A DNA stretch of 64,000 bases from Candidatus Coatesbacteria bacterium. Its GTDB lineage: Bacteria > RBG-13-66-14 > B26-G2 > JAUVZD01. The notes beneath the pieces are model-generated. The model was not told the DNA's origin. It made no database searches and was given only the letters and a program-made list of their open reading frames with translations. This document shows positions 43,622-61,639 of this stretch, in pieces. The DNA lies in the NCBI GenBank assembly GCA_030602715.1, contig JAUVZD010000001.1, positions 270,213 to 334,212 of the forward strand. Reading direction: 5' to 3'. A program made the translations under genes and the position numbers. Position 1 is the stretch's first letter. Each line of letters opens with the position of its first letter.

Positions 43622-43673
43622 TTATATTTCAAGCCTGCAGTTTTTACAAGCGCTTAATTGCATAAGAGCTGAC

Positions 43674-44753
43674 CTACAGGAAAAAGAAGGCTACCGCTAA
43701 AACCAGATACAGCCCCAGCAGTTGGAGTCCCTCAAGCCAGTTGGAACGACCGTCGTTGGACATAAGCACCGTGCTTACCACGGCAAAAGCGATGGCTACC
43801 AGCTCCAGAGGTTCAAAGACCAAATCCATGGGACTGCCCAGAGCGAGACTGATGAGCACTAAAAATGGCGCCACCAAGAGGGCAATCTGCTGTGCGGAGG
43901 AGGAGCAGATGGCAAAGGACAGGTCCATATTGTTCTTATAGGCGAAAAGGACCGCGCTGGAGTGTTCTGCGGCGTTGGCGATGATAGCCACTATCACCAC
44001 CCCCATAAATATCTCCCCCCAACCAAGGGCTACGATGGTCGGCTCTATTGCCCCCACCAACACCTCGGCGGCGAAAAACAGCCCCACACCGCTGAATATC
44101 AAGGTGAGCACAGAGCGAGGCAGACTCCAGCCGAAAGGAGATTCGTGCTTGGGGGTCATCCTCTCCTCCACCCCAATCTTTTTGAGGAGGAAGTGATGGC
44201 GATGGGTGCGGAAGATAAACAGGAGGCTTGCCAGATATATGATGATAAGCACGATGGAGATGACTATGCTCATCTCCATCAGGTCAACTTTGAGGTGGGC
44301 TGAGGAGACGGTCATGAAGAAAATGGAGGGGATGACCAGCGCCGCCACCGCCAGAGCCATCATATTACTGTTCATGGATGCCATCTTAATACTGAAATGC
44401 TGGACTTTATGGGAGATTCCCCCCACCAGGGCGGACAATCCCCAAACCAGAAGCAGGTTGCCTATGATGGAGCCGGTGATGGATGCTTTTACCACCACGG
44501 AAAGCCCCGCCTTCAGCCCCACTATCCCCACGATGATCTCCGCTCCGTTGCCCATGGTGGCGTTCAGGAGACCGCCGGAGACCGGACCGATTCGGCTGGA
44601 GAGCTCCTCGGTTGACCAGCCAAGCATTATCGCCAGAAGGACAATCCCCACCGCGGAGACGACAAACTCCACAAGCGGATTGATGGATGCAAACATCAAG
44701 ACCGCTGAAAACAGGGTAAAGACTACGCATATGATTATGACCACCCGTACCAT
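43674..44753 (-). CDS. Ca2+/H+ antiporter (CaCA family)
   Basis: Two alpha-repeat signatures (GNGAEIIVGIVG..; GIAIPSS.. NAAEHSSAVLFAYK), about 11 TM helices. Start set to ATG 44753 (MVRVVIII), 4 nt after the galT stop; the ORF-track extension overlaps galT. Confidence 0.8.
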   Translation of the reverse strand: MVRVVIIICVVFTLFSAVLMFASINPLVEFVVSAVGIVLLAIMLGWSTEELSSRIGPVSGGLLNATMGNGAEIIVGIVGLKAGLSVVVKASITGSIIGNLLLVWGLSALVGGISHKVQHFSIKMASMNSNMMALAVAALVIPSIFFMTVSSAHLKVDLMEMSIVISIVLIIIYLASLLFIFRTHRHHFLLKKIGVEERMTPKHESPFGWSLPRSVLTLIFSGVGLFFAAEVLVGAIEPTIVALGWGEIFMGVVIVAIIANAAEHSSAVLFAYKNNMDLSFAICSSSAQQIALLVAPFLVLISLALGSPMDLVFEPLELVAIAFAVVSTVLMSNDGRSNWLEGLQLLGLYLVLAVAFFFL

Positions 44754-44757
44754 AGTC

Positions 44758-45780
44758 TCACTCACCCATAAGAAACTCCCGCACCCTCTCCGGAGGGGTG
44801 GGGTTGATGTAAAAGCCGGTGCCCCACTCAAAGCCCGCCACCCGGGTAAGGCGGGGGAATATCTCAAAATGCCAGTGGTAGTCCACCTCTATGGTAGTCC
44901 AATAGCCGGAGCGGGGGGTGCGCAAGGGGGCGGTGTGCAGGAGCATGTTGTAGTCCGGATTTTCCAGATTTTCCCGCAACTTTATCAATATCATTTTGAG
45001 AATCTTAGAGAGGGAGGTCAACTCCTGCGGGCTAATTTTATGGTAATCGGATTGATGCTTCTTGGGAATAACCCACATCTCAAAGGGGAAGCGAGAGGCG
45101 AAGGGGGCGATGACCGCAAAATGCTCATCATCCATCACCAGACGCTCCCCGGCTTTCATCTCCTGCTTCAGGTAGTCGCAGAAGATACAGCGCTCCTTCT
45201 CCTGATAATACTTCTTGGAGCTTTGGAGCTCCTCCTTCACCGTGATGGGGGTAACCGGGGTGGCTATCAGCTGGGAGTGGGCATGGGGCAGGCTGGCTCC
45301 GGCCCGAATCCCCTGATTCTTGAATACCATTGCGTAGCGCAGGCGGTCATCTCTGTCCAGTTCTATAATCCGCTCCCTGAAAGCCCCCAGAACAAGCTCA
45401 ATATGCTCCTCCGGTAGGTCCGATAACCTCTGGTCATGACGGGGGGTCTCCACGATCACCTCGTGCGCTCCCACTCCCTCAGCCATGTCGCACATCCCTA
45501 TCCCCCGCCGGGCGACATCCCCTTCAATGCGCAGGACGGGATACTTGTTGGGAATTACTCGCACCAGCCAGCCGGGCCCGTTCGCCTTTCCCCCACCGGG
45601 ACGGACCGCATATATCTCCGGCGGGGTCATATGCTCGTTTCCCTCGCAGAAGGGACAGCCCTCGCTCTTTGTATCCGACGGCGTTTCAGCGCTACTTTTG
45701 AAATGGTGCGGTCTAGCATCCCTTTCGGTGGCAATTATCACCCAACGGGAAACTATGGGGTCCTTTCGCAACTCGGACAT
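44758..45780 (-). CDS. galT: Galactose-1-phosphate uridylyltransferase
   Basis: CPFCEGNE zinc knuckle, HEVIVETPRH, LPHAHSQL (HxH active site), FEMWVIPKKH. Confidence 0.9.
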   Translation of the reverse strand: MSELRKDPIVSRWVIIATERDARPHHFKSSAETPSDTKSEGCPFCEGNEHMTPPEIYAVRPGGGKANGPGWLVRVIPNKYPVLRIEGDVARRGIGMCDMAEGVGAHEVIVETPRHDQRLSDLPEEHIELVLGAFRERIIELDRDDRLRYAMVFKNQGIRAGASLPHAHSQLIATPVTPITVKEELQSSKKYYQEKERCIFCDYLKQEMKAGERLVMDDEHFAVIAPFASRFPFEMWVIPKKHQSDYHKISPQELTSLSKILKMILIKLRENLENPDYNMLLHTAPLRTPRSGYWTTIEVDYHWHFEIFPRLTRVAGFEWGTGFYINPTPPERVREFLMGE

Positions 45781-45809
45781 CGTTCCTCCTGCACTCTATC
45801 AGTAAAGGT

Positions 45810-46364
45810 TCATATCTTGAGGGAGATGTATTCTGCGGGAATATACTGGCAGAGATAATCCCTCTCGCTTCTGAAAAACTTCACCCCAGCCTGGTGAGCT
45901 CTCTTTGCGGAGACTGCGATAATTACCGGGCTGGGGGAGACCTTTCCTCCCTGATACCAGGCTTCGTCAACGGTCTCAGCCAGGAAGATGAAGCGCCTTC
46001 CCAGGGGCTTCAGCCCATATTTGGTGACCGAGGAGACCATAAGCTGAGGCAGACCGTGATAGAGGATTTCAGGGGGGATGACCTCCTCCGGTTCGGGGCG
46101 AATCATATATCGGTGACCGCTCACCGCCTTGACCCGCTCCTGCCACCGCTCAAAATGTGACCCGTCGCCGATAACTTCCTCAATCTGCCGGGGGGTAGCC
46201 CAGTTGGAGACCGTCCTTACCACCAGCTTCAACTGCTCCAAGCTCACAAAGCCCCATTCATCTACCTTAATCCCAAACTGCTCGGGGTCCTCCCGAAGAA
46301 TCCTCAACAGTAAATCTCGCAGTTCCTCCCTCTGCTTGCGGGATGCAAAGAGACTTTCACCCAT
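45810..46364 (-). CDS. kptA: KptA/Tpt1-family RNA 2'-phosphotransferase homologue
   Basis: LLRILREDPEQFGIKVDEWGFVSLEQL and ILYHGLPQLMVSSV..GLKP..RRFIFL align with E. coli KptA ([38 protein letters not shown]..GL); but LRE replaces LRH. Confidence 0.7.
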   Translation of the reverse strand: MGESLFASRKQREELRDLLLRILREDPEQFGIKVDEWGFVSLEQLKLVVRTVSNWATPRQIEEVIGDGSHFERWQERVKAVSGHRYMIRPEPEEVIPPEILYHGLPQLMVSSVTKYGLKPLGRRFIFLAETVDEAWYQGGKVSPSPVIIAVSAKRAHQAGVKFFRSERDYLCQYIPAEYISLKI

Positions 46365-46434
46365 ATTTGAATTCTATTAAAGGGCGCAGGTCATGTCAAC
46401 TATATTATATTTTCCGCAAAGATGCCCACAGTTG

Positions 46435-46464
46435 TTGACTTAACCGACCCCGCTGTGCTATCAT
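46435..46464 (+). promoter_or_regulatory. Sigma-70-like promoter TTGACT-18-TATCAT upstream of murA
   Basis: TTGACT 46435-46440, 18-nt spacer, TATCAT 46459-46464; murA TTG start at 46495 with RBS aaaaggag. Confidence 0.4.
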
Positions 46465-46494
46465 TTTCCACCAACCCGAAAAAAGGAGCAGAGT

Positions 46495-47763
46495 TTGGAG
46501 AAGATAATAATCGTGGGCGGAAGTGTCCTGAGGGGCAAGGTTAGACCCTCGGGCTCTAAAAATTCCGCCCTGCCGATAATGGCCGCCTCCCTGCTCAGCA
46601 CTGAACCCATCATCCTGCACCATGTCCCACGCCTGGTGGATATTGAGACCATGGCTCAGGTTATGGACGTGTTAGGGGCGAAGGTGGAGTGGACAGGCGA
46701 CCACGACCTGCGCATAGACCCCGTAGGGCTCTCCTCCTATGAAGCGCCCTACGACCTGGTGCGGCGCATGCGAGCCTCCATCTATGTGTTGGGTCCGCTC
46801 GTCGCCCGCCTGAAAAAAGCCAAGGTGAGCCTGCCCGGCGGATGTTCCTTCGGTCCCCGACCGGTGGACCTTCATCTCAAGGGCATAGAGGCTCTGGGAG
46901 GAAAGGTCAGTTTGGAGCATGGTTATATTATGGTGAATGCGGATGAACTGGTGGGTGCAAAGATGAATCTTGCCGGCGCCTCCGGACCCAGTCGTGGGGC
47001 AAGCTCCAATGTAATGATGGCCGCCTCACTTGCCGAAGGAGTTACGGTTATAAACGGCGCCGCCCAGGAGCCGGAGCTTGTCCAACTGCAGGAATTCATC
47101 AATTCCATGGGCGGAAAGGTGAGCGGTGCGGGTAGCGACAAGCTCACCGTAGAGGGGGTATCCCAGTTAAAAGGCAGCGAATTTGAGATAATGGACGACT
47201 ACATAGAGGCGGGCACCTATCTGGTGGCTGGGGCTATGGCCGGGGAAATGGTGGCTGTGGAGGGCGATTTTTCCGCCAACCTCAAGCCGGTCCTTGCCTC
47301 CCTGGAGGAGACCGGCGCCCGTTTGGAGGTCGGTGAGGGGAAAGTGACCGTCCACGGCAACCCCCGACCGACCGCTGTCAACATAACCACCGCCCCCTAT
47401 CCCGGTTTCCCCACCGATATGCAGGCACAGATGATGGCTTACCTCTGTCGTGGGCGGGGAAGCTCGGTCATACGGGACACCATCTACCCCGACCGCTTCA
47501 ACCACGCCCAGGAGCTTCTTCGTCTGGGTGCGGACATCGTGAGGGAGGACGGAAGTGCCATCATAAACGGCGTGGAGGAGCTGTCCGGAGCCTACCTCAT
47601 GGCTAGCGACCTGCGCGCCTCGGCCGCCCTGATCCTCGCCGGTCTGGTAGCCAGAGGGGAGACGCATGTGCGCCGAATCTATCACATTGACCGGGGCTAT
47701 GAGCGCATTGAGGAGAAATTGGGACAGTTGGGGGCTGAAATCCGGCGGGTGGAGGAGGAGTGA
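46495..47763 (+). CDS. murA: UDP-N-acetylglucosamine 1-carboxyvinyltransferase
   Basis: IIVGGSVLRGKVRPSGSKNSALPIMAASLL, LPGGCSFGPRPVDLH (catalytic Cys), HIDRGYERIEEKL. Confidence 0.95.
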   Translation: MEKIIIVGGSVLRGKVRPSGSKNSALPIMAASLLSTEPIILHHVPRLVDIETMAQVMDVLGAKVEWTGDHDLRIDPVGLSSYEAPYDLVRRMRASIYVLGPLVARLKKAKVSLPGGCSFGPRPVDLHLKGIEALGGKVSLEHGYIMVNADELVGAKMNLAGASGPSRGASSNVMMAASLAEGVTVINGAAQEPELVQLQEFINSMGGKVSGAGSDKLTVEGVSQLKGSEFEIMDDYIEAGTYLVAGAMAGEMVAVEGDFSANLKPVLASLEETGARLEVGEGKVTVHGNPRPTAVNITTAPYPGFPTDMQAQMMAYLCRGRGSSVIRDTIYPDRFNHAQELLRLGADIVREDGSAIINGVEELSGAYLMASDLRASAALILAGLVARGETHVRRIYHIDRGYERIEEKLGQLGAEIRRVEEE

Positions 47764-47785
47764 GGTTGTGCTATAACTAGAAAGT

Positions 47786-47819
47786 AAAAAACCGGCGCAG
47801 TGTGCCGGTTCTTGTTTTT
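47786..47819. terminator. Bidirectional rho-independent terminator after murA
   Basis: aaaaa-AACCGGC-gcagtgt-GCCGGTT-cttgttttt: A-tract, 7-bp stem, T-tract. Confidence 0.65.
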
Positions 47820-47837
47820 AACCTTGGTCTGCAATTA

Positions 47838-48314
47838 TCATATCCGCTTCGTCAACTCCAAAGGATAATCAATAGTCCCAATCCAGGTCTTTACATGGAC
47901 CGTGCCCTTCAATGTCAAATCCACCCCTCCGGAAAGGATCGTCGCCAGCAGGGCTCTGCCCACCTCCTTGCTGTTTATGGTCAGGCTCAAATTGAGCCCA
48001 CCCTCCTGCTCCGGCTCAATCTCCAACTTCTCAGTATGAACGCCGGTGGATACCAATATATCCTCCTGAACATATATCTGATATTCAAAGCTGTCAACCA
48101 CCACTTTGATGTCGTTGGGGTTGGTCACCGATAACTTCACCCTGAGCTGGATACCCTCCAGGGAGATGCTCTCCACTACCACATCATCCAGCCTGAACTT
48201 ACAGTCCTTTATCGCCTTGCGCTGGGTTATGGTCTTGCAGGAGACCTGAGCGAGGACCAGGACGATGAGGATTAGATAGATAACCGGCGAACATCTCACT
48301 TCTTCTGGCAACAT
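47838..48314 (-). CDS. LEA_2/WHy-like (late-embryogenesis-abundant type 2) lipoprotein, tentative
   Basis: Lipobox LAQVSC; FRLDDVVVESISLEGIQLRVKLSVTNPND..VVVDSFEYQIYV matches the LEA14/WHy beta-sandwich pattern; by resemblance. Confidence 0.45.
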   Translation of the reverse strand: MLPEEVRCSPVIYLILIVLVLAQVSCKTITQRKAIKDCKFRLDDVVVESISLEGIQLRVKLSVTNPNDIKVVVDSFEYQIYVQEDILVSTGVHTEKLEIEPEQEGGLNLSLTINSKEVGRALLATILSGGVDLTLKGTVHVKTWIGTIDYPLELTKRI

Positions 48315-48413
48315 CTCCTAAAACCATCCCTCCATTTACCCAAGCGCTTATGAAAAAGGCTCCTGGCAAAAAGAGCCCCCTCTCGCCCTCTCAAAACCTG
48401 AAAACGACCTCTC

Positions 48414-48740
48414 TCACTTCTCCAGACCGGGGGGGTTGTATATCTTCTCCACAAACTCCATAACCCGCCCGAATTCGTCGGGGTCTATCCTCTCCAGGAC
48501 GATACGCCCGTCGCAGAAGAGGGTCACCTCCACCTCGCCTATTTTGAAAAGACAGGTCTCGCTGTCCATGCCATTCAGGTCGTAGCCACAGCTCCGATAA
48601 CAGGAGGAGAACCTATCCAGGTCCAACTTCAGATTCTTGAATGGCGCCACCTCAAAGTCCCCGATGTTTTTGGCACTGCAGAGTCTGGTAATCTCCAGGA
48701 CAATGGGTCCATTAGTAATGGTATCTATCTCCTCACGCAT
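48414..48740 (-). CDS. Hypothetical small Cys-containing protein translationally coupled to the cysteine desulfurase
   Basis: 108 aa; start overlaps the desulfurase stop by 8 nt; five Cys incl. CYRSC; no family assigned. Confidence 0.4.
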   Translation of the reverse strand: MREEIDTITNGPIVLEITRLCSAKNIGDFEVAPFKNLKLDLDRFSSCYRSCGYDLNGMDSETCLFKIGEVEVTLFCDGRIVLERIDPDEFGRVMEFVEKIYNPPGLEK

Positions 48741-49986
48741 CTCCCACCAGCTCCAATATCCTCTCGGTAACTTCCATAAATTTATCTATCTCCTCAACCG
48801 TGTTGTAGAATGCCATTGACGCCCGCACGGTTCCCCGCTCTACCCCCAGCACCTCCTGGTGCAGGGGGATGGCGCAGTGGTGACCACTGCGCAGGACGAT
48901 ATTGCCAAACTGGTCGTATAGAGAAGCGACCCTGTGTACCCCCAGGTCCGCAATATGGAAGGCGAAGATTCCCAGCCGCTTGTCGGTCCCCTCTGCCCCG
49001 AAGACCCGCAGTCGGTCATAGGAACGGATTTTGTGGTCAAACTCCCCGGTCAAGTGCTTACATCGCTTCTCTATGTTATCAAATCCAACCTCGCCTATGA
49101 AATCAACCGCCCGGGCAAAACCCGCAACCGCCGCTATCGGCTGGGTCCCGGCTTCAAAGCCCGTCGGCGTCTCCGCAACCCGGAATCCATCCAGCATAAC
49201 ATCGGTGACCATCCCCCCACCGACCAACAGGGGCTGGGGCTGGGGCGCATCCTTGCTGATATACAACGCTCCTATCCCGGTGGGTCCATACATTTTGTGC
49301 GCCGATATGGCCAGATAGTCAACCCCCAACTCCTTCACATTGATGGGAAAGTGAGGCGCCGCCTGAGCGGCATCCACCATGGTCAGTGTCCCCCGCTCCT
49401 TCGCCATCCGCACTACCTCCGCCACCGGTAGCCTCACGCCCAGCACATTGGAGACATAGACCATTGAGACCAATCGGGGCTTACTCTCCAGCGCTTTGTT
49501 ATAGGGCTCAAGGTCACCTAGATCATTGAGGTCGGGAATGACATACTCCAGTTTAAGACCGTTTCTTTTGGCGGTCACCTGCCAGGGGAGTAAGTTGGAA
49601 TGGTGTTCCGCCAGGGTGGTCACCACCCGGTCGCCCTTCTTCCAGGGCAGTCCGCAAGCGATGATGTTTATGGCTTCGGTGGTGTTGCGCACAAAGACTA
49701 TCTCCCGGGGTTCCGCCCCCAAAAAGTCGGCCACCTTCTCCCGACCCTCCTCAAAGACCCCGGTTGTCCTCTTGGTGTGGCGGGAGAGTCCCCGCCCCAC
49801 ATTGGCGCGGTAATAGAGGTCGCTCTCCATCATCGCCTCGGCAACCTGCCGGGGCATCAAGGAGGTGGCGGCGTTATCAAAATAGATTATGCCGCCCTCG
49901 GCTAGAATGGGAAACTGGTGGCGAATTGACTCAATGTCCATTGTCAACTCTACCTCTGGGGGGGATTTTGATTCTGGGTTGGTCAA
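48733..49986 (-). CDS. sufS: Cysteine desulfurase, SufS/CsdA-type (aminotransferase class V)
   Basis: FDNAATSL, PLP-Lys context AISAHKMYGPTGIGALY, group-II signature RSGHHCAIP. Possible start MDIESIRHQF at 49941. Confidence 0.85.
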   Translation of the reverse strand: MTNPESKSPPEVELTMDIESIRHQFPILAEGGIIYFDNAATSLMPRQVAEAMMESDLYYRANVGRGLSRHTKRTTGVFEEGREKVADFLGAEPREIVFVRNTTEAINIIACGLPWKKGDRVVTTLAEHHSNLLPWQVTAKRNGLKLEYVIPDLNDLGDLEPYNKALESKPRLVSMVYVSNVLGVRLPVAEVVRMAKERGTLTMVDAAQAAPHFPINVKELGVDYLAISAHKMYGPTGIGALYISKDAPQPQPLLVGGGMVTDVMLDGFRVAETPTGFEAGTQPIAAVAGFARAVDFIGEVGFDNIEKRCKHLTGEFDHKIRSYDRLRVFGAEGTDKRLGIFAFHIADLGVHRVASLYDQFGNIVLRSGHHCAIPLHQEVLGVERGTVRASMAFYNTVEEIDKFMEVTERILELVGDA

Positions 49987-50387
49987 GGGTTATTCCGCCA
50001 GTCGTTTGTTGGATTATGCAAAAACGGGGTAAAGGTGTTTCTACGATTTTACCCTAATCGGGAAAAATGTCAAGGAAAGAGGTTCAAAAAAATACCCCAA
50101 AAATATGTTGCTGGAGTTACAATTATTCTGCCGATATCAGTATTGCCCCGGATCAACCAGATTCATACAACTTCCTGATATAGTTCTCCTTTCATCATCT
50201 AGATTTTTGCTCACTTTCAAAAGTCAAGCCAACTTTTGAGTAAAAAAACCGAGTGCCTTGGCACCCATTTTGAGACACTCATGGCGTCAACAAAGCGGTT
50301 ATCTGCCCACTTCCCGATACTACCAGCATCGGTGGCATTTTCCATAAGATACTTTTCCGTCTTTTTCTTGCTTTTATCATCGCATTA

Positions 50388-50416
50388 TGATATATTTCTT
50401 GAGGAGAAGTTAACAC
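50388..50416 (+). promoter_or_regulatory. Candidate promoter TTGCTT-17-TATATT upstream of the 537-aa secreted protein gene
   Basis: TTGCTT 50388-50393, 17-nt spacer, TATATT 50411-50416, in a ~450-bp AT-richer divergent intergenic region. Confidence 0.3.
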
Positions 50417-50442
50417 TAACCATCCCACGGGGGGTGATTTGA

Positions 50443-52056
50443 GTGAGTAGATATTTGGTGATGGCAACCGTTCTACTAATGACATCTGTCCCCGCTGCCA
50501 TTCATTCGGGGCTCACCCAGCAGGGCAGTTCGCTCATATCGGGTGGGGTCCCCAGCCTCATTGGCTCCACCGACACGCATTTCCTGCCCACTCCCGGCTC
50601 CGAGACCCAGCTCATAGAAGCCACCAACTGTTACCTGAACGCCACCTATTACGGCACCTTTGGTGAAACCTGGAACACAGACCAGGGTTTCTACTACAAC
50701 ACCACGGAGATGTTTAACCCGGACCATTACAGCAACCCCTTTGCTTTCACCGAGAGTCCAGCAGGTCCTTACGGCAACTATAAGGACATCACCGCCGGGA
50801 TGAGCCAGGACCTGGCCATCTCCCCATCATACAGTTCCGCCACCCTCTCCTTCTACGCCCATTGGGACATTGAGGTTGATTTTGACGGCATGGAACTGGA
50901 GGTCTCACCCAACGGTGGATTCAACTGGTATAACCTGCAGGCAACCTACACCGTCCTGGGTTGTAACCCCCCTTCCATCGGTCAGCCGAACCCCTCCCAC
51001 TATTACTTTGAGGGTAATGAAGGAGAATATGGTGATTTCGTGCTGGTAACCGCAAACCTCAACCCCTACATCGGCGTTAGCCAACTGCGCATCCGCTTCC
51101 ATTTCCGCACCGATGGATACAATGAGTATCCCTACGACGGCTTCTTCTTAGACAACTTCAAAATTGTGGGTGACACCACTACCCTCTTCTTCCTGGACTT
51201 TGACAATGGTTTTCAAGCTGTCTGGGAATATCAATCCCCCTGGGGAAAGACCCAATCCATCAGCCGTATCTGCAATGGGTTGGACTTCGGTCAGGTGCTG
51301 GCAGGAATAAGCAATGAATATGTGGCTTATGGAGGTTATATTGGAAGTTACGACGACTGGTATCCGCTGGGCCCCTGGACCACAGACCCCTACTATTGCA
51401 AGTTTGAAAACACTCAGGAACCCCCCTACGGACCCCACCTGGAGGTGCACGAATTCATCTATGGAATAGACATGAGTTACGACGACTACATCATCATTGA
51501 CTCCTACTATCACAATGTCGGGGTGGAATACATCAACGACATTTATCTGGGTCCCCAGATGGACATGCGGGTGGCACATACCGGGAACGAGGAAATATGG
51601 GGTCCCTGGTATGACATAGCCCGCTACGACAGCTACCAGCATCTCGCATATCTCTACGACTACGAAGAGGAAGATAATATCTGCTTCGGATTGGCGCTCT
51701 TCACCGATAACCCCTACTCGGTGAACTTCTTTGAGCCCTCCACCTACGCAGTGTTCACCGACCCCAATCTACTCTTCCCACAACTCTCCAATGGACAGAA
51801 GGACTGGGAATCGGGACCCAGCCCGCCCCCGGGCAACAACTGGGCGGTCACCATGGGAGTGGGACCCATAGACCTATCCCCCAACGATGTCTATCGTGTC
51901 TGCTTTGCGATTATCGGTGGGGATTCGGTGGACGACCTGAAGAACAACACCACCCGTGCCTACAATAGTTATACCCAGCTTCCCGATATGTCCGGCTTCA
52001 TAGTTTTAATACAGCCATGTAGTCTTGGGCGTCTGAAGGCTATGTTCGCCGAATAA
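50443..52056 (+). CDS. Hypothetical secreted aromatic-rich protein
   Basis: 537 aa; GTG at 50443 or ATG at 50461 (MATVLLMTSVPAAIHS signal); very Tyr/Trp/Phe/Asn/Pro/Gly-rich; segment AHWDIEVDFDGMELEVSPNGGFNWYNL..LRIRFHFRTDGYNEYPYDGFFLDNFKIVG has the look of a beta-sandwich domain. No catalytic motif. Confidence 0.5.
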   Translation: MSRYLVMATVLLMTSVPAAIHSGLTQQGSSLISGGVPSLIGSTDTHFLPTPGSETQLIEATNCYLNATYYGTFGETWNTDQGFYYNTTEMFNPDHYSNPFAFTESPAGPYGNYKDITAGMSQDLAISPSYSSATLSFYAHWDIEVDFDGMELEVSPNGGFNWYNLQATYTVLGCNPPSIGQPNPSHYYFEGNEGEYGDFVLVTANLNPYIGVSQLRIRFHFRTDGYNEYPYDGFFLDNFKIVGDTTTLFFLDFDNGFQAVWEYQSPWGKTQSISRICNGLDFGQVLAGISNEYVAYGGYIGSYDDWYPLGPWTTDPYYCKFENTQEPPYGPHLEVHEFIYGIDMSYDDYIIIDSYYHNVGVEYINDIYLGPQMDMRVAHTGNEEIWGPWYDIARYDSYQHLAYLYDYEEEDNICFGLALFTDNPYSVNFFEPSTYAVFTDPNLLFPQLSNGQKDWESGPSPPPGNNWAVTMGVGPIDLSPNDVYRVCFAIIGGDSVDDLKNNTTRAYNSYTQLPDMSGFIVLIQPCSLGRLKAMFAE

Positions 52057-52160
52057 CAGCTCCGCCTTCAGAGCCCGACAGCTTAGCAAAGACCCTTGCC
52101 AAAGGGTCTTTGCTATATTATCATTTCGCCATCGGCAAAAATTTGGAACGGAGCAGAAAG

Positions 52161-53567
52161 ATGATACGCTTTTACAACACCATGAGCAGAAGGATTGAGG
52201 AGTTCAAGCCCCTGGTAGCCGGTCAGGTGGGTATGTATAACTGCGGACCGACGGTCTATGGCTACACCCACATAGGCAATCTGCGCACTTTTATGTTTGA
52301 GGACCTACTGCGCCGAACCCTCAAGCACTTCGGATATAAGGTGACCCAGGTGATGAACATAACCGACATTGACGACAAGACCATAAAGGGGGCAAACGAA
52401 AAGGGCATCTCCTTGAGCGAATATACCGAGCCTTACACCCAAGCCTTCTTTGAGGACATCGGCACCCTGAACATTGAACCGGCAGAGATCTACCCCCGAG
52501 CCACCGAACATATCCCGGATATGGTCAAGCTGGTTGAACGGCTTGCGAAAGCGGGGCTGACCTACGACGCCGAGGACGGCATCTACTTCCCCATCGCCAA
52601 GTTTCCCGCTTATGGACGCCTCTCCGGTTTTGACATCAGCCAGGTCAAGGTGGGAGCGCGCATCTCTCAGGATGAATACGACAAGGAGGACGCCCGGGAC
52701 TTCGCCCTGTGGAAGAAGGAGTCACCGAACGAGCCGGCATGGGACGCCCCCTTCGGGCGGGGCCGTCCCGGCTGGCACATTGAGTGCTCGGCGATGTCAA
52801 TGAAATATCTCGGAGAAACCTTTGACATCCATACCGGCGGGGTGGACAACATCTTCCCCCACCACGAAAACGAGATCGCCCAGAGCGAGGGAGCCAGCGG
52901 CGAAACCTTCGTCCACTACTGGCTGCACAGCGAACATCTCATCGTGGAAGGGCAGAGGATGGCTAAGTCCCTGGGCAATTTCTACATCCTGCGCCAGCTC
53001 CTGGACAAGGGACATCACCCCATGGCAATCCGCTACCTGTTACTCTCCACCCACTACCGCAAACGGCTCAACTTCACCTTTGAGGGCTTGGAGGGAGCCA
53101 AAACCTCCGTTCGCCGAATGCAGGACCTGAAGCTCAGACTGGGTGATGTTGCGCAGGCTGGTGTGAAGAAAGATATGGCGGGACCGCTCCCGGCGGTGTT
53201 GCAGGCACAAACAGAGAAATTCAATTCCGCTCTAGCCGATGACCTCTCCATCTCCCCCGCTCTAGCCGCCGTCTTTGAGGTCGTCCGGGTGGCAAACATC
53301 AGCCTGGAGGAGGCTTCTCTCTCCTCCACCGAGGCGCAAGAGGCTCTGGAGTTTTTCTCCCGGGTGGATAAAGTGCTGGGCGTATTGGGCAACGAGGGTG
53401 ATGAGGGGGAGGTTCCAGAAGAGGTGCTGGAGCTCTCAAAGAGGAGAGAGCTGGCTCGCCAGGAGAAGAACTTCACCCTGGCTGACGAACTCCGCTCCAA
53501 GATAGAGGCTTTAGGGTATGAGGTGAAGGACACACCCCGGGGAAGCAGACTGAAGCGGAAAACATAA
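52161..53567 (+). CDS. cysS: Cysteine--tRNA ligase
   Basis: MIRFYNTMSRRIEEFKP..MYNCGPTVYGYTHIGN (HIGH), WHIECSAM (zinc site), RMAKSLGN (KMSKS). Start chosen at ATG 52161 (RBS ggagcagaaag) rather than the ORF-track 52110. Confidence 0.95.
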   Translation: MIRFYNTMSRRIEEFKPLVAGQVGMYNCGPTVYGYTHIGNLRTFMFEDLLRRTLKHFGYKVTQVMNITDIDDKTIKGANEKGISLSEYTEPYTQAFFEDIGTLNIEPAEIYPRATEHIPDMVKLVERLAKAGLTYDAEDGIYFPIAKFPAYGRLSGFDISQVKVGARISQDEYDKEDARDFALWKKESPNEPAWDAPFGRGRPGWHIECSAMSMKYLGETFDIHTGGVDNIFPHHENEIAQSEGASGETFVHYWLHSEHLIVEGQRMAKSLGNFYILRQLLDKGHHPMAIRYLLLSTHYRKRLNFTFEGLEGAKTSVRRMQDLKLRLGDVAQAGVKKDMAGPLPAVLQAQTEKFNSALADDLSISPALAAVFEVVRVANISLEEASLSSTEAQEALEFFSRVDKVLGVLGNEGDEGEVPEEVLELSKRRELARQEKNFTLADELRSKIEALGYEVKDTPRGSRLKRKT

Positions 53568-53571
53568 CTGA

Positions 53572-53600
53572 GGACGGAAATTTGCTCCCCGTCCCTTTTC
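53572..53600 (+). terminator. Weak terminator-like hairpin after cysS
   Basis: ggacgg-aaatttgctcc-ccgtcc followed by cttttc; 6-bp stem only. Confidence 0.3.
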
Positions 53601-53714
53601 ATCAATTGCGTCTATTGCACTCCCGCACCGCCCTCGTTCAATCACAAAATCTCTACATAAGCTGAATCCTCGTTCTGTGGGGGGAAATTATGCTTGGAAA
53701 ATCCAGCCCCCCCC

Positions 53715-54443
53715 CTACCTATTGAATATCTCCTGCACAAAGTATATCAAGAAGCGCGCAGTGTCCATAACCACATTTATCTTGCTCTGCTCCTCACCGG
53801 TATATACCGTTTCTATCGGAGTGTTGCCGATGCGGTAACCGAGGCGGGAGGCTTTGAAGAGTAGTTCTGCCTCCAGCTCAAAGCCTCGCTTGGTGAAGGT
53901 CATCCCGTTCACCACCCGGGTGGCTATCCCCCGATAGCCGTTCTGGCTGTCCGGGATATACTGCCCGGCGATCAGAGAGATGACCAGGGAGGTGCTCAGG
54001 TTGCTGAAGCGCCTTTCCAGGGGCATCCCGCTCAGGTCAGCCATGCGGTTTCCCAGCACCACATCGTAGCCACGCTCCAGCTGGGCGACGAACTGGGGGA
54101 TATGCTTGGGCGGGTGCTGACCGTCGCCATCCAGGGTGATAATATATTCCACCCCGCACTCCTGCGCCCAGCGGAAACCCCGTTCCAGCGCCGCTCCCTT
54201 GCCCATATTTCTCGACTGGGAGAGGACCACCGCCCCCGCTTGTCGTGCTTTCCGGGCGGTCCCATCCACAGAGCCGTCGTCTACCACAACCACATAGTCC
54301 ACCAGCGGAAGGCACTGCGCAACCACATCCGCCACCTTCCGCTCCTCGTTGTAGGCGGGAATAAGAGCCATCACAACGGGTCTGGAAACGCTTTCTTGCA
54401 GGAGCATGGTCCTAATTTTAGCCTCCATTTTTCGCAATGTCAA
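53715..54443 (-). CDS. Glycosyltransferase family 2 (DPM1/GtrB-like)
   Basis: MALIPAYNEE, VVVDDGSVDGT, IITLDGDGQHPP (DxD region) are the GT-A fold signature. Confidence 0.85.
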   Translation of the reverse strand: MTLRKMEAKIRTMLLQESVSRPVVMALIPAYNEERKVADVVAQCLPLVDYVVVVDDGSVDGTARKARQAGAVVLSQSRNMGKGAALERGFRWAQECGVEYIITLDGDGQHPPKHIPQFVAQLERGYDVVLGNRMADLSGMPLERRFSNLSTSLVISLIAGQYIPDSQNGYRGIATRVVNGMTFTKRGFELEAELLFKASRLGYRIGNTPIETVYTGEEQSKINVVMDTARFLIYFVQEIFNR

Positions 54444-54543
54444 GGACTGTAACCTTTAGCAACCAGTAATAACTTGATTTTTTCACCGCACTGTGGTAAG
54501 ATATTGAGTTGAAAAATAGATTTCAGTTGGAGGTTTCTGAGGA

Positions 54544-55194
54544 GTGTTCAACCGATTCATCTTGGCAATTGTTCTGACGGGTGTTTTTTTTGTAACTCCC
54601 GCCCAGGCCAGGTATGTCATCGGTGTGGATGATATACTTTATATACAGCTCTATGGTGACCCCTCCATGACCGGTCACTGGGAGGTGCGGGAGGACGGCA
54701 ACATCAAATATCCCCTGCTGGGTGAGGTAAAATCCGCCGGCTACACCCTAAGCGAATTCAACGACTCGCTCACCGAAAAACTAAAAAAATACTATCAGGA
54801 CCCCCAGGTAACCGTAACCGTTGGCACCTACGGTAGCTGTAAGGTCTTCGTCCTCGGTCAGGTTGCCCGACCGGGTGTATATTACTACAAGCGGGAGGCT
54901 TCGGTCCTTGAGATTTTACTCCTCGCCGGAGGAGCGCTGGATTCCGGCAAGAAGAGTTCGGTGGTGGTGATCCGCCAGTTGGAATCCACCCCACAAATTA
55001 TGCGGGTCAATATTGATAAGGTGATAGACGAGGGGCTGGTCGCGCTAAACATACCGGTTAGACCACATGATATCGTCTTTGTGCCCAAGACATTCATAAC
55101 CAACTTAAATGATTTCCTGAACAAGATATATCCCTCCTTACGCACTTTTATGACCATAAACAGCATCTATCGCATGGAATGGACCCGTCCGTAA
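54544..55194 (+). CDS. Polysaccharide export protein (Wza/OPX family, short form)
   Basis: Signal peptide; Poly_export motif YVIGVDDILYIQLYGDP..YPLLGEVKSAGYTLSEF; SLBB-like VFVLGQVARPGVYYY. GTG start with RBS ggagg. Confidence 0.8.
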   Translation: MFNRFILAIVLTGVFFVTPAQARYVIGVDDILYIQLYGDPSMTGHWEVREDGNIKYPLLGEVKSAGYTLSEFNDSLTEKLKKYYQDPQVTVTVGTYGSCKVFVLGQVARPGVYYYKREASVLEILLLAGGALDSGKKSSVVVIRQLESTPQIMRVNIDKVIDEGLVALNIPVRPHDIVFVPKTFITNLNDFLNKIYPSLRTFMTINSIYRMEWTRP

Positions 55195-55209
55195 CACCTT
55201 CATTCTACC

Positions 55210-57573
55210 ATGAATAAAATTCTTGACAAGCATACCACCTTTCAGGATTATATCCAGATCTTCGTTAAGCGGCGCTGGTTGCTACTGGCTATCTTTCTGG
55301 GGGTTACCGCCATCGGGGCTTTCCTCAGCCTGCGAATGACCTCCATCTACAGCGCCACCACCACCATCCGGGTGGAGAAGAAACCCAGCATAATCTCAGC
55401 GTTAATGTATTATTACATGTGGGACCCCAATTTCTTTGACACCGAAGTCGCCTTCATCAAAAGCCGAAGCCTCTCAATGCGGGTGGTCAACCACCTGAAA
55501 TCAGCATACCAGACCGACCCACCCGTATGGAAGAAGAGCTACCTTGCCGATTTCACCCTGGAATTGTCCGTCCTCCCCGGGCAGTATACTTTACTAGTGG
55601 AGGATGAGGAGGGAAACTTCGTTGTCAAGGATTCCAGCGGTGCCACTATAGGAAGTGGAAAAAACTACGAGGAGTTTTCCCGTATGGGAATCTCCTTCAC
55701 CCTGAAACACCCCGAACCCCGCAAGGGTCTTTCCTGCAAGATAAATATAGACAACTTCGCCGCAAAGGTTGACGGCCTGCGAGCCAGTATTACCGCAAAA
55801 CCGATGAGGAATGTGAATATTATTGAGGTGCAGGTGTTGGGCAACAACCCCATTAAAGTGGCTAATCTAGCCAATGTCGTCGCAGAACAATACATCATTG
55901 AAAGCCAGCAAGCCAAGACCCAGCAGGTTACCGCCACCCGTCTGTTCATTGAGGAACAAATGAACATAATAAACACCCAGCTGGTGGAGCTGGAGGATGC
56001 CATCAGGGACTATAAGGAGAAGGAGGGGGTGGTTGACATATCGCAAAAGGCAAATTTCCTCATCCAGGAAATCGGCGACTATGAAAGACTGAAGGCGTCA
56101 AGCGAGATAGACCTGTTTATCGCCGAATCTGAACTAAACCGCATTCATTCCGCTTTGAGTAGTGATGGCGGTTCTCTAGAATCTTATATGGATGTATATT
56201 CCTCCCCCTATCTTTTGCAAAGCAGTAGGTATATCAACTTCTACGCTAATATGCAGGCTCTATACGAGGAGCGGAAGAGACTGCTTGAATTCTACACCGA
56301 AGAACATCCCCAGGTCAAGGAGTTGGACGCTCAGATAAAATCTATTGAAGACGCCTTCATGGACAGCATTCAGGACACACTCATATACGGCGACCTGGGC
56401 ACCAAGAAGGTGGAGCTCACTAATTACATCACTATGCTCAACAAGAAGATTGCCATACTGGATGAAGAGCTCTCCTATATGCCGGAGAAACAACTTATGC
56501 TCCTGCGCCTGGAGCGGGAAGCCAACGCCCAAGCGGAGATTTACAACATGCTCCTCTCCAAATATCAGGAGGCAAAGATAAGCGAAGCGATGAAGGAGAC
56601 CGAAATCCAAATTATGGACCCAGCCACCCCTGCGATGCGCCCCATAAGACCCAATCACTTCACAAATATCGGCTTGGCTGCCGCTCTGGGCTTGATACTC
56701 GCTATCATCACTATCTTAATACTGGAGATTCTGGACAACACCCTCAACACCGCCGAAGAGGTGAAGCGCTTCACCGGTTTACCTCTTGTGGGTCTGATTC
56801 CCAAAGCCCGACAGGGACCCATCCCCAAGATAACCGCCATAAGACGCAGAGACCTCTTGGGACGACGAAGACCCATCTCCATAGATCGGGACAAATATTT
56901 GATGGTTCATCTTGAGCCGAAATCGCCGGAAGCTGAGGCATACCGTTCTCTGCGCACCAACCTGGCAGCGGTCAAAGTTGACGGCATCCTCCAGAGTATC
57001 CTGATCACCAGCTCGGTCCTCTCCGAAGGAAAGACCTCCATAGCTACCAATCTAGCGACAATCTTTGCCATGGCTGGGCGAAAGACCGTATTGGTGGATA
57101 CCGACCTGCGCCGTTCCATCATCCATCACATATTCAGGCAAAAACGTTCCCCGGGACTGACCGAGGTCTGTGTGGAAAAGAAACCTTTGTCCAAAGTGCT
57201 GCGCAAGACCGATATCCCCAATCTCCACATCCTCACCAGCGGATTCCGCCCCCCCAATCCGGCGGAGATACTTGACTCCAAGACAATGGATGACCTTATC
57301 ACCAACCTGCGAAAAAGCTACGAGACGATCATCTTTGACTCCCCACCAATCCTGGCGGTGACCGACCCAATAATCCTGGCAAAGAAAGTGGACGCTACAT
57401 TTATCGTCATCCTCTCCCAATCCACCACATATCATTCCATAAAAATGGCTCACCAGTTCCTCACCAATGCCGGGGTGGAGCCAAACGGCACCATCCTGAA
57501 CGGCATAGACTTCGCCAGAAGCTACGGTCCCTACGGTTACAAATACTACCACTACTACTCCGAGGAAGATTAG
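55210..57573 (+). CDS. Polysaccharide co-polymerase / BY-kinase (Wzc-like chain-length determinant with C-terminal tyrosine autokinase)
   Basis: N-terminal TM + Wzz-like periplasmic coiled-coil region + second TM; C-terminal Walker A (SEGKTSIATNLA), Walker A' (VLVDTDLRR), Walker B (IIFDSPP) and Tyr-rich tail YGPYGYKYYHYY. Confidence 0.85.
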   Translation: MNKILDKHTTFQDYIQIFVKRRWLLLAIFLGVTAIGAFLSLRMTSIYSATTTIRVEKKPSIISALMYYYMWDPNFFDTEVAFIKSRSLSMRVVNHLKSAYQTDPPVWKKSYLADFTLELSVLPGQYTLLVEDEEGNFVVKDSSGATIGSGKNYEEFSRMGISFTLKHPEPRKGLSCKINIDNFAAKVDGLRASITAKPMRNVNIIEVQVLGNNPIKVANLANVVAEQYIIESQQAKTQQVTATRLFIEEQMNIINTQLVELEDAIRDYKEKEGVVDISQKANFLIQEIGDYERLKASSEIDLFIAESELNRIHSALSSDGGSLESYMDVYSSPYLLQSSRYINFYANMQALYEERKRLLEFYTEEHPQVKELDAQIKSIEDAFMDSIQDTLIYGDLGTKKVELTNYITMLNKKIAILDEELSYMPEKQLMLLRLEREANAQAEIYNMLLSKYQEAKISEAMKETEIQIMDPATPAMRPIRPNHFTNIGLAAALGLILAIITILILEILDNTLNTAEEVKRFTGLPLVGLIPKARQGPIPKITAIRRRDLLGRRRPISIDRDKYLMVHLEPKSPEAEAYRSLRTNLAAVKVDGILQSILITSSVLSEGKTSIATNLATIFAMAGRKTVLVDTDLRRSIIHHIFRQKRSPGLTEVCVEKKPLSKVLRKTDIPNLHILTSGFRPPNPAEILDSKTMDDLITNLRKSYETIIFDSPPILAVTDPIILAKKVDATFIVILSQSTTYHSIKMAHQFLTNAGVEPNGTILNGIDFARSYGPYGYKYYHYYSEED

Positions 57574-57578
57574 TAGAA

Positions 57579-58547
57579 GTGAGCCCAGAAAAACCCCCCC
57601 CATTCCCCTTCCAGAACTGTCTGGTGACCGGCGGTGCCGGTTTCATCGGCTCCCATGTCGTTGAACGGTTGCTTGCGCTGGGCTGTGCGGTGCGGGTGAT
57701 AGACGACCTCTCCACCGGGCGGAAGGAGAACCTCGCCCATCTCAAGGGATATGAGTTCATCCAGGGCAGGATTCAAGACAGGGCAACAATGCGTGAGTGT
57801 CTTGCCGACATCCAGGTGGTCTTCCATCTAGCCGCACGCACCTCCGTTCCCCGCTCCTTTGAGGACCCCCAGAAGACCCATCTGGTGAACTCAGGCGCAA
57901 GCCTGCTCATCGCAAAACTTTCTGCGGAGATGGGTGTAAAGGTGCTGGTCTATTCCTCCTCATCATCCATATACGGGGACAAACAAAACCCAGTGAAATC
58001 CGAGCGCATGCGACCGGAACCGAAATCGCCTTACGCCATCTCCAAGCTGGCCGGCGAGCGATACTGCCTCCTTTACGGTGGCGTCTCCCCCCTGAAAGCG
58101 GTCTCCCTGCGCTACTTCAATGTATTCGGTCCCCGCCAGGACCCCTCCTCACCTTACTCTGCGGTGATTCCTCGCTTCATAGAGGCACAGCTTAAGGCAG
58201 AACCCCCGGTCATTTTCGGCGACGGCACCCAGACCCGGGACTTCACCTTCGTGGATAATGTCGTCTCCGCCAATCTGCTTGCTGCTTCCGCTTCCCCTAC
58301 AAAACCACAGGCTTTTAACATAGGCACCGGGGAAAGAACCTCAATCAACCAACTGCTGGGCATCATCCAGTCCCACATTAAATCTCCTCCACCAATGAAG
58401 CCAGAATACCAACCCCCTCGCAAAGGCGATGTCCTCCACTCCCAGGCGAACATCCGCAAGGCAGAACACCTGTTAGGCTACAATCCCCGAGTCTCCTTGA
58501 AGGAAGGCTTGGTGCGAACCATCCGATGGTTTCAGACGCACAGATAG
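57579..58547 (+). CDS. NAD-dependent nucleotide-sugar epimerase/dehydratase (UDP-hexose 4-epimerase-like SDR)
   Basis: Rossmann motif VTGGAGFIGSH; catalytic YxxxK (SPYAISK); extended-SDR layout. Confidence 0.85.
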   Translation: MSPEKPPPFPFQNCLVTGGAGFIGSHVVERLLALGCAVRVIDDLSTGRKENLAHLKGYEFIQGRIQDRATMRECLADIQVVFHLAARTSVPRSFEDPQKTHLVNSGASLLIAKLSAEMGVKVLVYSSSSSIYGDKQNPVKSERMRPEPKSPYAISKLAGERYCLLYGGVSPLKAVSLRYFNVFGPRQDPSSPYSAVIPRFIEAQLKAEPPVIFGDGTQTRDFTFVDNVVSANLLAASASPTKPQAFNIGTGERTSINQLLGIIQSHIKSPPPMKPEYQPPRKGDVLHSQANIRKAEHLLGYNPRVSLKEGLVRTIRWFQTHR

Positions 58548-60300: not shown

Positions 60301-61329
60301 ATGTTCGTAGATGAGGTAACCATCACCCTCAAAGCCGGAGACGGAGGACGGGGGACGGTCAGCTTCCGGCGGGAGAAATTCATCCCCCGGGGTGGTCCCG
60401 ACGGCGGCGACGGCGGCCATGGTGGGAGTATCTACCTCGCTGTGGACGCTAATCTGAGCACCTTGAGCCACCTGCGAGGACAGCACCATTTCCACGCCCA
60501 GGACGGCAAGCCCGGCGGGCGAAATAAACGTCGGGGCAAATCGGGTCAGGATGCGACTATTCTCGTGCCTGCAGGGACCCGGGTAAGGCGCAGCGTTGAC
60601 GGACCCATCTTCTGCGAGCTGAATCAGGTCGGCGAGCGGGTGCTGGCGGCGAAGGGTGGAAGTGGAGGCAGGGGAAACTCTCGCTTCGCCACTTCAACCA
60701 ATAGAGCACCCCGCACCTACGAGGATGGAGAAGAGGGAGAGAAGTTCACCTTCTTTCTAGAACTTCGCCTGTTGGCTCAGGTGGCATTGATCGGTCCGCC
60801 CAATGCCGGAAAATCTACCATTCTCAGAGCCATAACCAACGCCACCCCCAAGGTCAGCGGTTATCCCTTCACCACTCTCACCCCCAATCTGGGGGTGGTG
60901 GATGTTGATGAACTTAATAGCTTCGTCATCTCCGACCTGCCCGGCATAATAAACGGCGCCCACCTGGGGGTGGGGCTGGGCGACCGCTTTCTGCGCCACA
61001 TAGAACGTTCGGCGGTCCTCTGTGCGGTCATTGATGTAGGCGGGGAGGTCCCCTCCGACCCGGCGGAGGATCTGGAGACCATTATAAAAGAGCTTCACTT
61101 GCGCAACGCCCGCCTGGCGGAGCGGTTGGCTCTGGTGATTGCCAACAAGATGGACCTGCCCAACGCAGCACAACAGTTGGAGATGCTGAAGCGGAAATGT
61201 CACCTGCCGATAGTAGCGGTAAGTGCGCTCAAGCGCCGGGAGCTTAATCGGCTGGTGGGGGAGCTCTTCTCCCTGGTTTTAGAGCGAAAACAACCGACCG
61301 AGGTGTCCATAGGTGATTCAGGGCTTTAA
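60301..61329 (+). CDS. obg: GTPase Obg
   Basis: Obg fold MFVDEV.I.LKAGDGGRG..SFRREKFIPRGGPDGGDGGHGGSIYL; G-domain GPPNAGKST, DLPGII. Confidence 0.95.
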   Translation: MFVDEVTITLKAGDGGRGTVSFRREKFIPRGGPDGGDGGHGGSIYLAVDANLSTLSHLRGQHHFHAQDGKPGGRNKRRGKSGQDATILVPAGTRVRRSVDGPIFCELNQVGERVLAAKGGSGGRGNSRFATSTNRAPRTYEDGEEGEKFTFFLELRLLAQVALIGPPNAGKSTILRAITNATPKVSGYPFTTLTPNLGVVDVDELNSFVISDLPGIINGAHLGVGLGDRFLRHIERSAVLCAVIDVGGEVPSDPAEDLETIIKELHLRNARLAERLALVIANKMDLPNAAQQLEMLKRKCHLPIVAVSALKRRELNRLVGELFSLVLERKQPTEVSIGDSGL

Positions 61330-61639
61330 CACCGAAATCACTCTGAAAGACAGCACCTACCACATCCAGACCGAACTGGTGGGCTCACGTATCGTAAGCC
61401 TCATCTTCCTGAACGGTGCGGTCATCGCCGACAAACAGACCAAGATAGAGGAGCCCTATCATACCGAATCCCTCTCAAAAGAGGAACTGAAGGTTCTAAG
61501 GAAATCCATGCGGGAACAGCACATGAACATGATTGAACAGCTCAAGGGAGGAGAGGAACTGCCCAGAGATGCGAAACGACCGATTGATGAGGATAAGGAC
61601 CTTATCAGCAAATTTCTGGATGAGTGGGCGCAGGAATAG
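61313..61639 (+). CDS. Hypothetical small protein overlapping the obg 3' end
   Basis: 108 aa ORF overlapping obg by 17 nt in another frame; helical K/E-rich C-terminus; no motif. Could be spurious. Confidence 0.3.
   Translation: MIQGFNTEITLKDSTYHIQTELVGSRIVSLIFLNGAVIADKQTKIEEPYHTESLSKEELKVLRKSMREQHMNMIEQLKGGEELPRDAKRPIDEDKDLISKFLDEWAQE

Follow-up and report, generated by a model that had tools for sequence, protein, structure and literature searches.

The InhA-like MAM domain (PF20773) is known from Bacillus immune inhibitor A2 (PDB 4yu5) and from secreted M36 and M14 peptidases, and the beta-supersandwich from the phosphorylases of glycoside hydrolase (GH) family 94 (2cqs, 6ggy), the GH15 glucoamylase (1lf6), enzymes of GH116 and GH65, and aldose 1-epimerases. 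Several sorting systems, namely those of sortase, exosortase, rhombosortase and the type IX secretion system (T9SS), were found by way of short C-terminal tags shared by exported proteins that are otherwise unrelated. In this work, a 64-kb stretch of DNA from a Candidatus Coatesbacteria bacterium, called here the window, was analysed around the gene of a 537-aa protein (50443..52056, plus strand) and the gap between this gene and a sufS-like gene on the minus strand. The 537-aa protein founds a tiny family built of known folds, with no catalytic domain and with an apparently undescribed C-terminal tag. The gap is without evidence for a riboswitch, and is an ordinary though unusually long divergent promoter region. 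The reading as a whole, in which a divergent promoter gap with a neutral spacer stands beside an exported two-domain protein, a non-catalytic binder that would be sorted or anchored via its tag, seems to us reasonably probable.

The locus was compared with the sister strain L001, a Logan contig whose protein is 95% identical to the 537-aa protein, and with the sister strains L092 and L093, metagenome contigs of the Joint Genome Institute (JGI) that are collinear with positions 44453-55533 of the window at 96.6% identity. The strain comparison of the gap thus covers four sequences (window, L001, L092 and L093) of at least 93% identity. The relative L002 encodes a protein 57% identical to the 537-aa protein, and its sufS DNA is 68% identical; L003, L084, L085, L088 and L089 are further family loci, and L007 and L011 are Zixibacteria loci. 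A word-indexed search of 5.8 billion proteins with the 537-aa protein as query retrieved two close relatives and one match restricted to the MAM region. An exhaustive HMMER search of 1.84 billion representatives found about ten full-length clusters (P0001, P0004-P0011) and the fragments P0012 and P0095, and all its remaining matches cover the MAM region only. A family search of the GTDB genomes returned no relative. The family alignment used below contains 13 sequences.

The coding sequence of the 537-aa protein starts with GTG and differs from that of L093 by 12, 8 and 27 substitutions at codon positions 1, 2 and 3, respectively; judging from this excess at third positions, the open reading frame (ORF) is a real gene. 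A preliminary description of this DNA had pointed to a secreted protein rich in aromatic residues, Asn, Gly and Pro, and the composition agrees with it: Tyr, Trp and Phe make up 16.8% of the residues, the highest value among the large ORFs compared, with 6.5% Asn, 9.1% Gly and 6.9% Pro. The protein is also acidic (Lys plus Arg 3.2% versus Asp plus Glu 12.1%). Residues 1-22 (50443..50508, plus strand) resemble a signal peptide with no lipobox Cys, and the AlphaFold2 (AF2) model has a helix at residues 2-22 and then a low-confidence linker at residues 23-52, with a predicted local distance difference test (pLDDT) score below 50 for residues 17-52. A hydrophobic signal-like segment is present at the N-terminus of every full-length family member. 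The product would be exported through Sec.

The AF2 model built from the 13 sequences reached a pLDDT of 72.5, with both domains mostly confident; a first model, from 3 sequences, was discarded as unusable (pLDDT 31). Short terminal helices aside, the model consists of beta structure, and the architecture that it predicts is a signal peptide, a linker, a MAM-like jelly roll, a second linker, a supersandwich and a tail. The jelly roll comprises approximately residues 55-250 (50605..51192, plus strand). Its InhA-like MAM domain, PF20773, is the sole Pfam match of the protein (residues 115-250, 32.6 bits versus a gathering score of 26.9) and is matched by 10 of the 13 family members, with a best E-value of 1.6e-14. 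In NCBIfam, this region is recognised only within M36 peptidases, and the family profile matches 4yu5 by sequence (E 3.7e-6), with only the MAM region aligned. Differently from the InhA-type proteins, the MAM domain is here N-terminal and followed by the supersandwich, and no M6, M36 or M14 catalytic domain accompanies it. The M6 domain with its HExxH zinc site is not present in the 537-aa protein, which has no peptidase family match, and neither an HExxH motif nor a match to a peptidase, GH or polysaccharide lyase (PL) family in Pfam or NCBIfam was found in any of the 13 members.

The second domain, a galactose-mutarotase-like beta-supersandwich at approximately residues 277-495 with a helix at residues 496-511 (51271..51987, plus strand), has in the model the N-terminal supersandwich fold of GH94/GH15/GH65-type enzymes. 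In the structure comparison its best matches were the non-catalytic N-terminal domains of GH94 and GH15, and it also matched GH116 and GH65 enzymes; Foldseek agrees with this. Identity to the described supersandwiches is 6-13%, with no sequence-family match, and PF01263 (aldose 1-epimerase) is not matched. In contrast to GH94, GH15 and GH65 enzymes, the protein ends after the supersandwich: the (alpha/alpha)6 catalytic domain is absent from the model, and there is no GH match in Pfam. The residues that are invariant or nearly so in the supersandwich are D353, Y368, G416, D454, R485, A489 and N502.

These residues bear on the alternative that the protein is an enzyme, either a new carbohydrate-active enzyme with a catalytic supersandwich like that of aldose 1-epimerase, or a protein that works as part of, or together with, a secreted peptidase. 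D353, D454 and R485 could form a site, and MAM-like domains usually accompany peptidase domains (InhA, M36, M14). However, the mutarotase (GalM) mechanism uses a catalytic His and Glu, and no His or Glu is among the invariant residues that could match them; together with the lack of HExxH and of peptidase or GH/PL matches, and with best structural matches that are themselves non-catalytic, this makes the enzyme quite unlikely. All modules of the 537-aa protein elsewhere accompany secreted peptidases and carbohydrate-active enzymes, and we favour the view that it would bind glycans or surfaces outside the cytoplasm without catalysing a reaction. The likeness to carbohydrate- or surface-binding beta-sandwich proteins mentioned in the preliminary description therefore stands at the level of the fold, with two beta domains in the model, and binding itself is a suggestion. 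The profile and structure searches found known folds (PF20773 and the supersandwich) and no catalytic family. As a very small, lineage-restricted family that joins two known accessory folds without an enzyme domain, the protein is of modest importance in itself.

The C-terminal tail is more distinctive. Residues 523-537 (52009..52053, plus strand) form the tag IQPCSLGRLKAMFAE, in which S527, G529 and K532 are invariant in the 13 sequences. All family members end in a tag of 13-15 residues with the consensus V-x-P-x-S-[LIF]-G-x-[ILV]-K-[AS]-[LMI]-[FY]-x(1-2)-end. A scan of ORF ends in every locus compared found the tag also on other proteins, which bear signal peptides and are unrelated to the family. 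These are tandem sets of three and of four proteins of about 210-234 aa in the two Zixibacteria loci, propeller-like proteins of 273/274 aa in L011 and beside the family gene in L089, and a Ycf48/BNR-like protein in L088. By hhalign, the proteins of about 210-234 aa resemble the family in the signal peptide only; that the propeller-like and Ycf48-like proteins are unrelated to it is suggested by their differing Pfam profiles. In other phyla, none of the 1967 ORFs of 120 aa or more at 78 cysS loci (853 kb) carries the tag. Neither Pfam nor NCBIfam matches it, even with isolated tails at E<=10, and a census with a profile of the 42-aa tail recovered fragments of the same families only.

Among the other MAM-domain proteins, the C-termini that were inspected are in many cases T9SS-type domains, P0003 also has one, and in L088 a T9SS-tailed protein (Por_Secre_tail) neighbours the family gene. 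The C-terminal domain models PF18962 and TIGR04183, on the other hand, match none of the 13 family members. Where the tail sits, and on which proteins it occurs, is as expected of a modular C-terminal signal distinct from T9SS; it would serve, specifically in this lineage, for sorting, anchoring or processing, at the place where MAM relatives carry the T9SS C-terminal domain. The tail ...SLGRLKAMFAE has no hydrophobic stretch, and the tag is unlike sortase and exosortase tags because it has no transmembrane stretch. No candidate sorting enzyme was found among the neighbours in L086, L088, L089 and L090, no sortase-like gene nearby and no exosortase in the window, and nothing relevant on Zixibacteria sorting signals or T9SS turned up in the literature.

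The surroundings of the tagged genes are also recurrent. In the window, L003, L084 and L085, the family gene immediately precedes cysS in the same orientation, at a distance of 56-118 nt, and the CysS proteins of these four are 58-74% identical. In the Zixibacteria loci L007 (5607-9474) and L011 (6001-10984), a tandem set of 3-4 tagged genes follows cysS and precedes metG; the association of tag and cysS is biased, because these two loci were found through cysS. We propose, tentatively and as a possibility with the odds somewhat against it, that the tail is a new sorting, anchoring or processing signal of Zixibacteria and neighbouring uncultivated lineages for a defined set of exported proteins, that it would be read by a machinery other than T9SS and the sortase, exosortase and rhombosortase systems, and that the 537-aa protein is one cargo and the linkage to cysS real.

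Alternatively, the tag may have no part in sorting. It could serve the structure or the interactions of the protein, for instance as a strand for oligomerisation or as a docking site for a PDZ-type protease or partner, or its recurrence could reflect shared ancestry of the last, exon-like module. Its shortness, the missing transmembrane stretch and the one or two trailing residues, so that its distance to the end is not fixed, would suit such a role, and by its hydrophobic moment it could be a helix as well as a strand. A T9SS-type signal, moreover, coexists with the tag in at least one lineage (the L088 neighbour). However, variable linkers join the tag to at least four unrelated folds, all with signal peptides, and it is always at the extreme C-terminus. 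A non-sorting role is thus rather doubtful.

The gap upstream of the gene measures 456 bp between the two ORFs as listed and 501 bp from the likely ATG of sufS at 49941. The length is given as 456-501 bp because the true start of sufS is probably this ATG, which has a GAGGT Shine-Dalgarno sequence and corresponds to the start of the L002 gene, and not the listed TTG at 49986. In a ranking of 59 gaps by a crude gene caller it came second. The longer one, a "584-bp gap" at 43622-44205, was rejected as an artefact of the caller, as a Na/Ca-exchanger gene (43674..44867, minus strand) occupies the region; the gap is hence the longest intergenic region in the window, where the other divergent gaps measure 130-195 bp. 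Beside that artefact, a 403-aa ORF (44206..45417, plus strand) looks spurious, with no Pfam match and with 2, 11 and 9 substitutions by codon position versus L093, and the real gene at 43622-45417 is the overlapping 397-aa Na/Ca-exchanger ORF.

The preliminary description had reported about 450 bp with no convincing ORF, richer in AT than its surroundings and with several short inverted repeats. The coordinates are right, and the GC content is 0.38-0.44 in the gap versus about 0.55 in the flanks. Inverted repeats are present too, but they are weak, mostly long-range and imperfect. No conserved ORF was found among the candidate small ORFs checked in the sister strains. These candidates were rejected because each is disrupted in a sister strain, by 1-nt deletions at 50353 and 50403 in L093, by loss of the stop at 50440 in L093 and L001, or by the breakpoint of L001 at 50126. 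Two further origins of the gap were tried and rejected: a pseudogene remnant of a 107-aa paralogue of L002, of which tblastn finds none, and a repeat or mobile element, since blastn against the window and all loci gives orthologous copies only.

Each of the two genes has a predicted promoter of its own in the gap. On the minus strand, a sigma-70-type promoter-like site of sufS, TTGACA-16-TAAAAT (50046..50073; 11/12), is identical in L093, and the sufS-like gene would be read from this near-consensus site with a leader of about 98 nt (49942-50039). On the plus strand, the predicted promoter of the 537-aa gene (50368..50396) is TTGCTT-17-TGnTATATT, with the -35 hexamer TTGCTT at 50368-50373, a spacer of 17 nt and the extended -10 element TGATATATT at 50388-50396. 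The predicted transcription start site (TSS) is at about 50403, which gives a leader of about 39 nt before the GTG, and the Shine-Dalgarno region GGGGGGTGAT (50429..50438, plus strand) lies 5-14 nt ahead of this start codon. The sequence TATGATATA is invariant in the alignment of the window, L001 and L002. The L002 counterpart has the promoter TTGATT-17-(TG)TATACT at the same distance from its gene, and 9 of the 9 readable family loci have a sigma-70-type promoter and a GGAGG-type Shine-Dalgarno sequence 40-65 nt before the start codon. The divergent promoters supposed earlier are in this way supported by a predicted site for each gene and, on the plus strand, by an architecture that recurs in L002 and all family loci. 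The 537-aa gene would be read from its own extended -10 promoter with a short leader and a strong Shine-Dalgarno sequence, and is probably transcribed on its own.

The approximately 295 bp between the promoters (50074..50367, with no strand assigned) would be an AT-rich spacer under neutral drift. The gap differs from L093 at 7.0% of positions. In the same comparison, third codon positions differ by 5-7.8% in most neighbouring genes (1.4-7.8% in all genes compared), and other gaps by 1.5-10%. In the 317 nt shared with L001 there are 13 substitutions and a 3-nt indel, and third positions of the coding sequence differ by 3.7%. Among the four strains, the gap appears to drift at about the neutral rate. 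Left of 50126, L001 carries a PAS-domain gene (L001 1-1338) in place of sufS, so that synteny is broken there; the break reflects either recombination at the foot of a hairpin (GATATCAG...CTGATAT) or a chimera in the assembly. L002 in turn has the extra 107-aa paralogue between sufS and the family gene. The spacer is probably left over from local rearrangement.

A regulatory RNA or riboswitch-like leader, also suggested by the preliminary description, found no support. At gathering thresholds, Rfam has no match in the whole 64-kb window. In the gap, even at E<=10, only chance-level matches appear (best E 0.32-6), far under the gathering scores. The upstream region of L002 cannot be aligned with the gap, apart from the -10 element and the ribosome-binding site, and an nhmmer profile of the gap found nothing in 10 related loci. 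Homology to the gap is not detectable in L002, L084 or L085. The family gene has an upstream gap of 93 bp in L084 and of 269 bp in L085, so that the family in general can do without a long leader. The neutral divergence and a predicted 5' untranslated region of only about 39 nt point the same way.

On that proposal, the gap would be a long plus-strand cis-regulatory leader (riboswitch or attenuator) of the 537-aa gene, starting for instance at TGATATAGT (50176-50184), with the hairpin at 50250-50267 as attenuator. The exceptional length of the gap would fit such a leader, as would the extended -10-like TGATATAGT, a copy of a sequence in the main promoter region (repeat D2), and the presence of a hairpin with a short T-run on the plus strand. 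However, the plus-strand version of this hairpin contains a mismatched A-C pair and just 4 T, and the plus-strand fold of the gap is no better than that of shuffles (z -0.78). Conservation is missing in L002, L084 and L085, and Rfam has no match. A promoter close to the gene is shared by the whole family, and the gap accepts frameshifting indels and substitutions along its entire length. Such a leader is very improbable. The result for the gap is negative and removes a riboswitch candidate, and a divergent promoter region with a spacer is the description that we retain.

The minus strand of the spacer has more structure. Its fold is somewhat better than that of shuffles (z -1.75, and z -2.68 for 50236-50380), and it contains an intrinsic-terminator-like hairpin at 50243..50267, GGGUGC-CAAG-GCACUC followed by G and U7, with a stem of 6-7 bp and a loop of 4 nt. 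The hairpin has the GC-rich stem and U-tract of a terminator, for which it is a candidate by sequence, and is good on the minus strand only, because the other strand lacks both the G.U pair and the U7 tract. Its stem-loop is unchanged in L093 and L001. Upstream on the same strand lies a weak promoter-like site, TTAACT-18-CATAAT (50384..50413; 9/12). Its -10-like hexamer (50384-50389) adjoins the plus-strand -10 hexamer (50391-50396) and overlaps the TG extension of the latter, both within ATTATGATATAT (50384-50396). Bidirectional promoters are common in bacteria (PMC10268837, PMC12825309). The plus and minus -10-like hexamers a few bases apart in ATTATGATATAT are like the bidirectional pseudo-symmetric promoters described (PMC10268837, PMC12825309), but the minus site here is weak, is not conserved in L093, and is predicted from sequence.

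An RNA of about 135 nt could thus be read on the minus strand from a TSS at about 50377 to the hairpin and U7 at 50267-50243, either as a small RNA (sRNA) or as a terminated by-product of bidirectional initiation; in the latter case, the terminator could stop the minus transcript before it runs into the sufS promoter. The paired promoter-like and terminator-like sites, the invariant stem-loop in three strains, the frequency of bidirectional promoters and the fold score of the minus strand, compared with that of the plus strand of the wider region, speak for this RNA. So do the substitutions at 50331, 50335 and 50238, which replace G-C by G.U pairs in the minus-strand RNA but would disrupt pairing on the plus strand; all three, however, are plain transitions, and one sits in a 3-bp stem. 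No Rfam family corresponds to the candidate, divergence across it is about neutral, and the -35 hexamer is damaged in L093 (A->T at 50413). Another predicted hairpin (50217-50239) is present in the window only, owing to a 3-nt indel, and L002 has no counterpart of the terminator. The case for a small minus-strand transcript appears weak at most, and the RNA is unlikely.

Several points weigh against the combination of divergent promoters, neutral spacer and tagged binder that we prefer. The minus-strand hairpin is unexplained by a model of promoters plus spacer, and both promoters, together with the short leader, are consensus predictions. The test of constraint is low in power because it compares only four near-identical strains, so a short functional element could hide in the spacer. 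L002 also has a gap of about 450 bp (447 bp), of unrelated sequence, which could mean that length or a feature other than sequence matters. For the protein, glycan binding is suggested by the fold alone in the model, and supersandwich domains occur also in YidC and in enzymes. The AF2 confidence of the tag is low (about 56), its supposed role is drawn from position and distribution in a census of about 12 loci, and that census is biased by the Zixibacteria loci found through cysS.

ORFs around the gap and the gene were also annotated. The SufS-like class-V aminotransferase/cysteine desulfurase (48733..49941, minus strand; listed ORF 48733..49986 from TTG) matches PF00266 with E 6e-112, and TIGR01979 (sufS) with 379 bits, below the cut-off of 475. 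A 108-aa ORF (48414-48740, minus strand) overlaps the end of sufS by 8 nt. It has no match in Pfam or NCBIfam and contains several Cys (LCS...C..CGY...C.F). L002 carries two paralogues of it, with 35-43% identity, flanking sufS (60-416, and 1715-2038 on the minus strand), and the ORF may encode an uncharacterised partner of the cysteine desulfurase.

On the other side, a 14-bp hairpin with a weak T-tract (52084..52115, plus strand) follows the 537-aa gene and overlaps a promoter-like site of cysS (52096..52124). The cysS gene (cysteinyl-tRNA synthetase; 52161..53567, plus strand), the downstream neighbour conserved in the family, likely starts at the ATG at 52161, where the conserved N-terminus MIRFYNT... 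begins; the listed ORF starts with TTG at 52110. Compared with GTDB species representatives, CysS shows 47-56% identity, with a maximum of 56%, and matches across many phyla including Zixibacteria. Omp85/BamA-like and TonB-dependent-receptor-like ORFs point to an outer membrane, and the bacterial lineage from which the window stems appears to be deep and poorly sampled.

A polysaccharide-export module at 53715-58547 comprises a glycosyltransferase of family GT2, a Wza-like exporter, a Wzc-like chain-length/tyrosine-kinase protein and an epimerase. The exporter matches an XrtA/PEP-CTERM-associated model below its cut-off, and no exosortase gene was found in the 64-kb window. A 108-aa ORF right after obg (61313-61639, plus strand) matches the model of the RomY N-terminal domain with 60 bits versus a cut-off of 50; RomY-like proteins form a Myxococcus polarity regulator family, unexpected in this lineage.

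If the tag is a sorting signal, a new tag system in poorly known sediment phyla would open a way into the construction of their cell surface, and would provide a simple sequence rule for predicting their surface and secreted proteomes. Among known systems, the 537-aa protein resembles T9SS type A cargo (PF18962/TIGR04183) in its signal peptide, its beta-sandwich modules, including a MAM-like one, and the presence of a C-terminal signal. It differs from such cargo in that the tag has 13-15 residues, compared with 70-100 in the Ig-like domain of T9SS, and matches no model of that domain. As a short, lineage-restricted end motif on unrelated exported proteins, the tag resembles those of PEP-CTERM/exosortase, LPXTG/sortase, GlyGly-CTERM/rhombosortase and MYXO-CTERM. 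From these it is set apart by the absence of a hydrophobic transmembrane segment, of a basic tail, of an NCBIfam match and of a sortase-like gene seen nearby, and it shares with them the position at the very end of proteins that have little else in common than their export.

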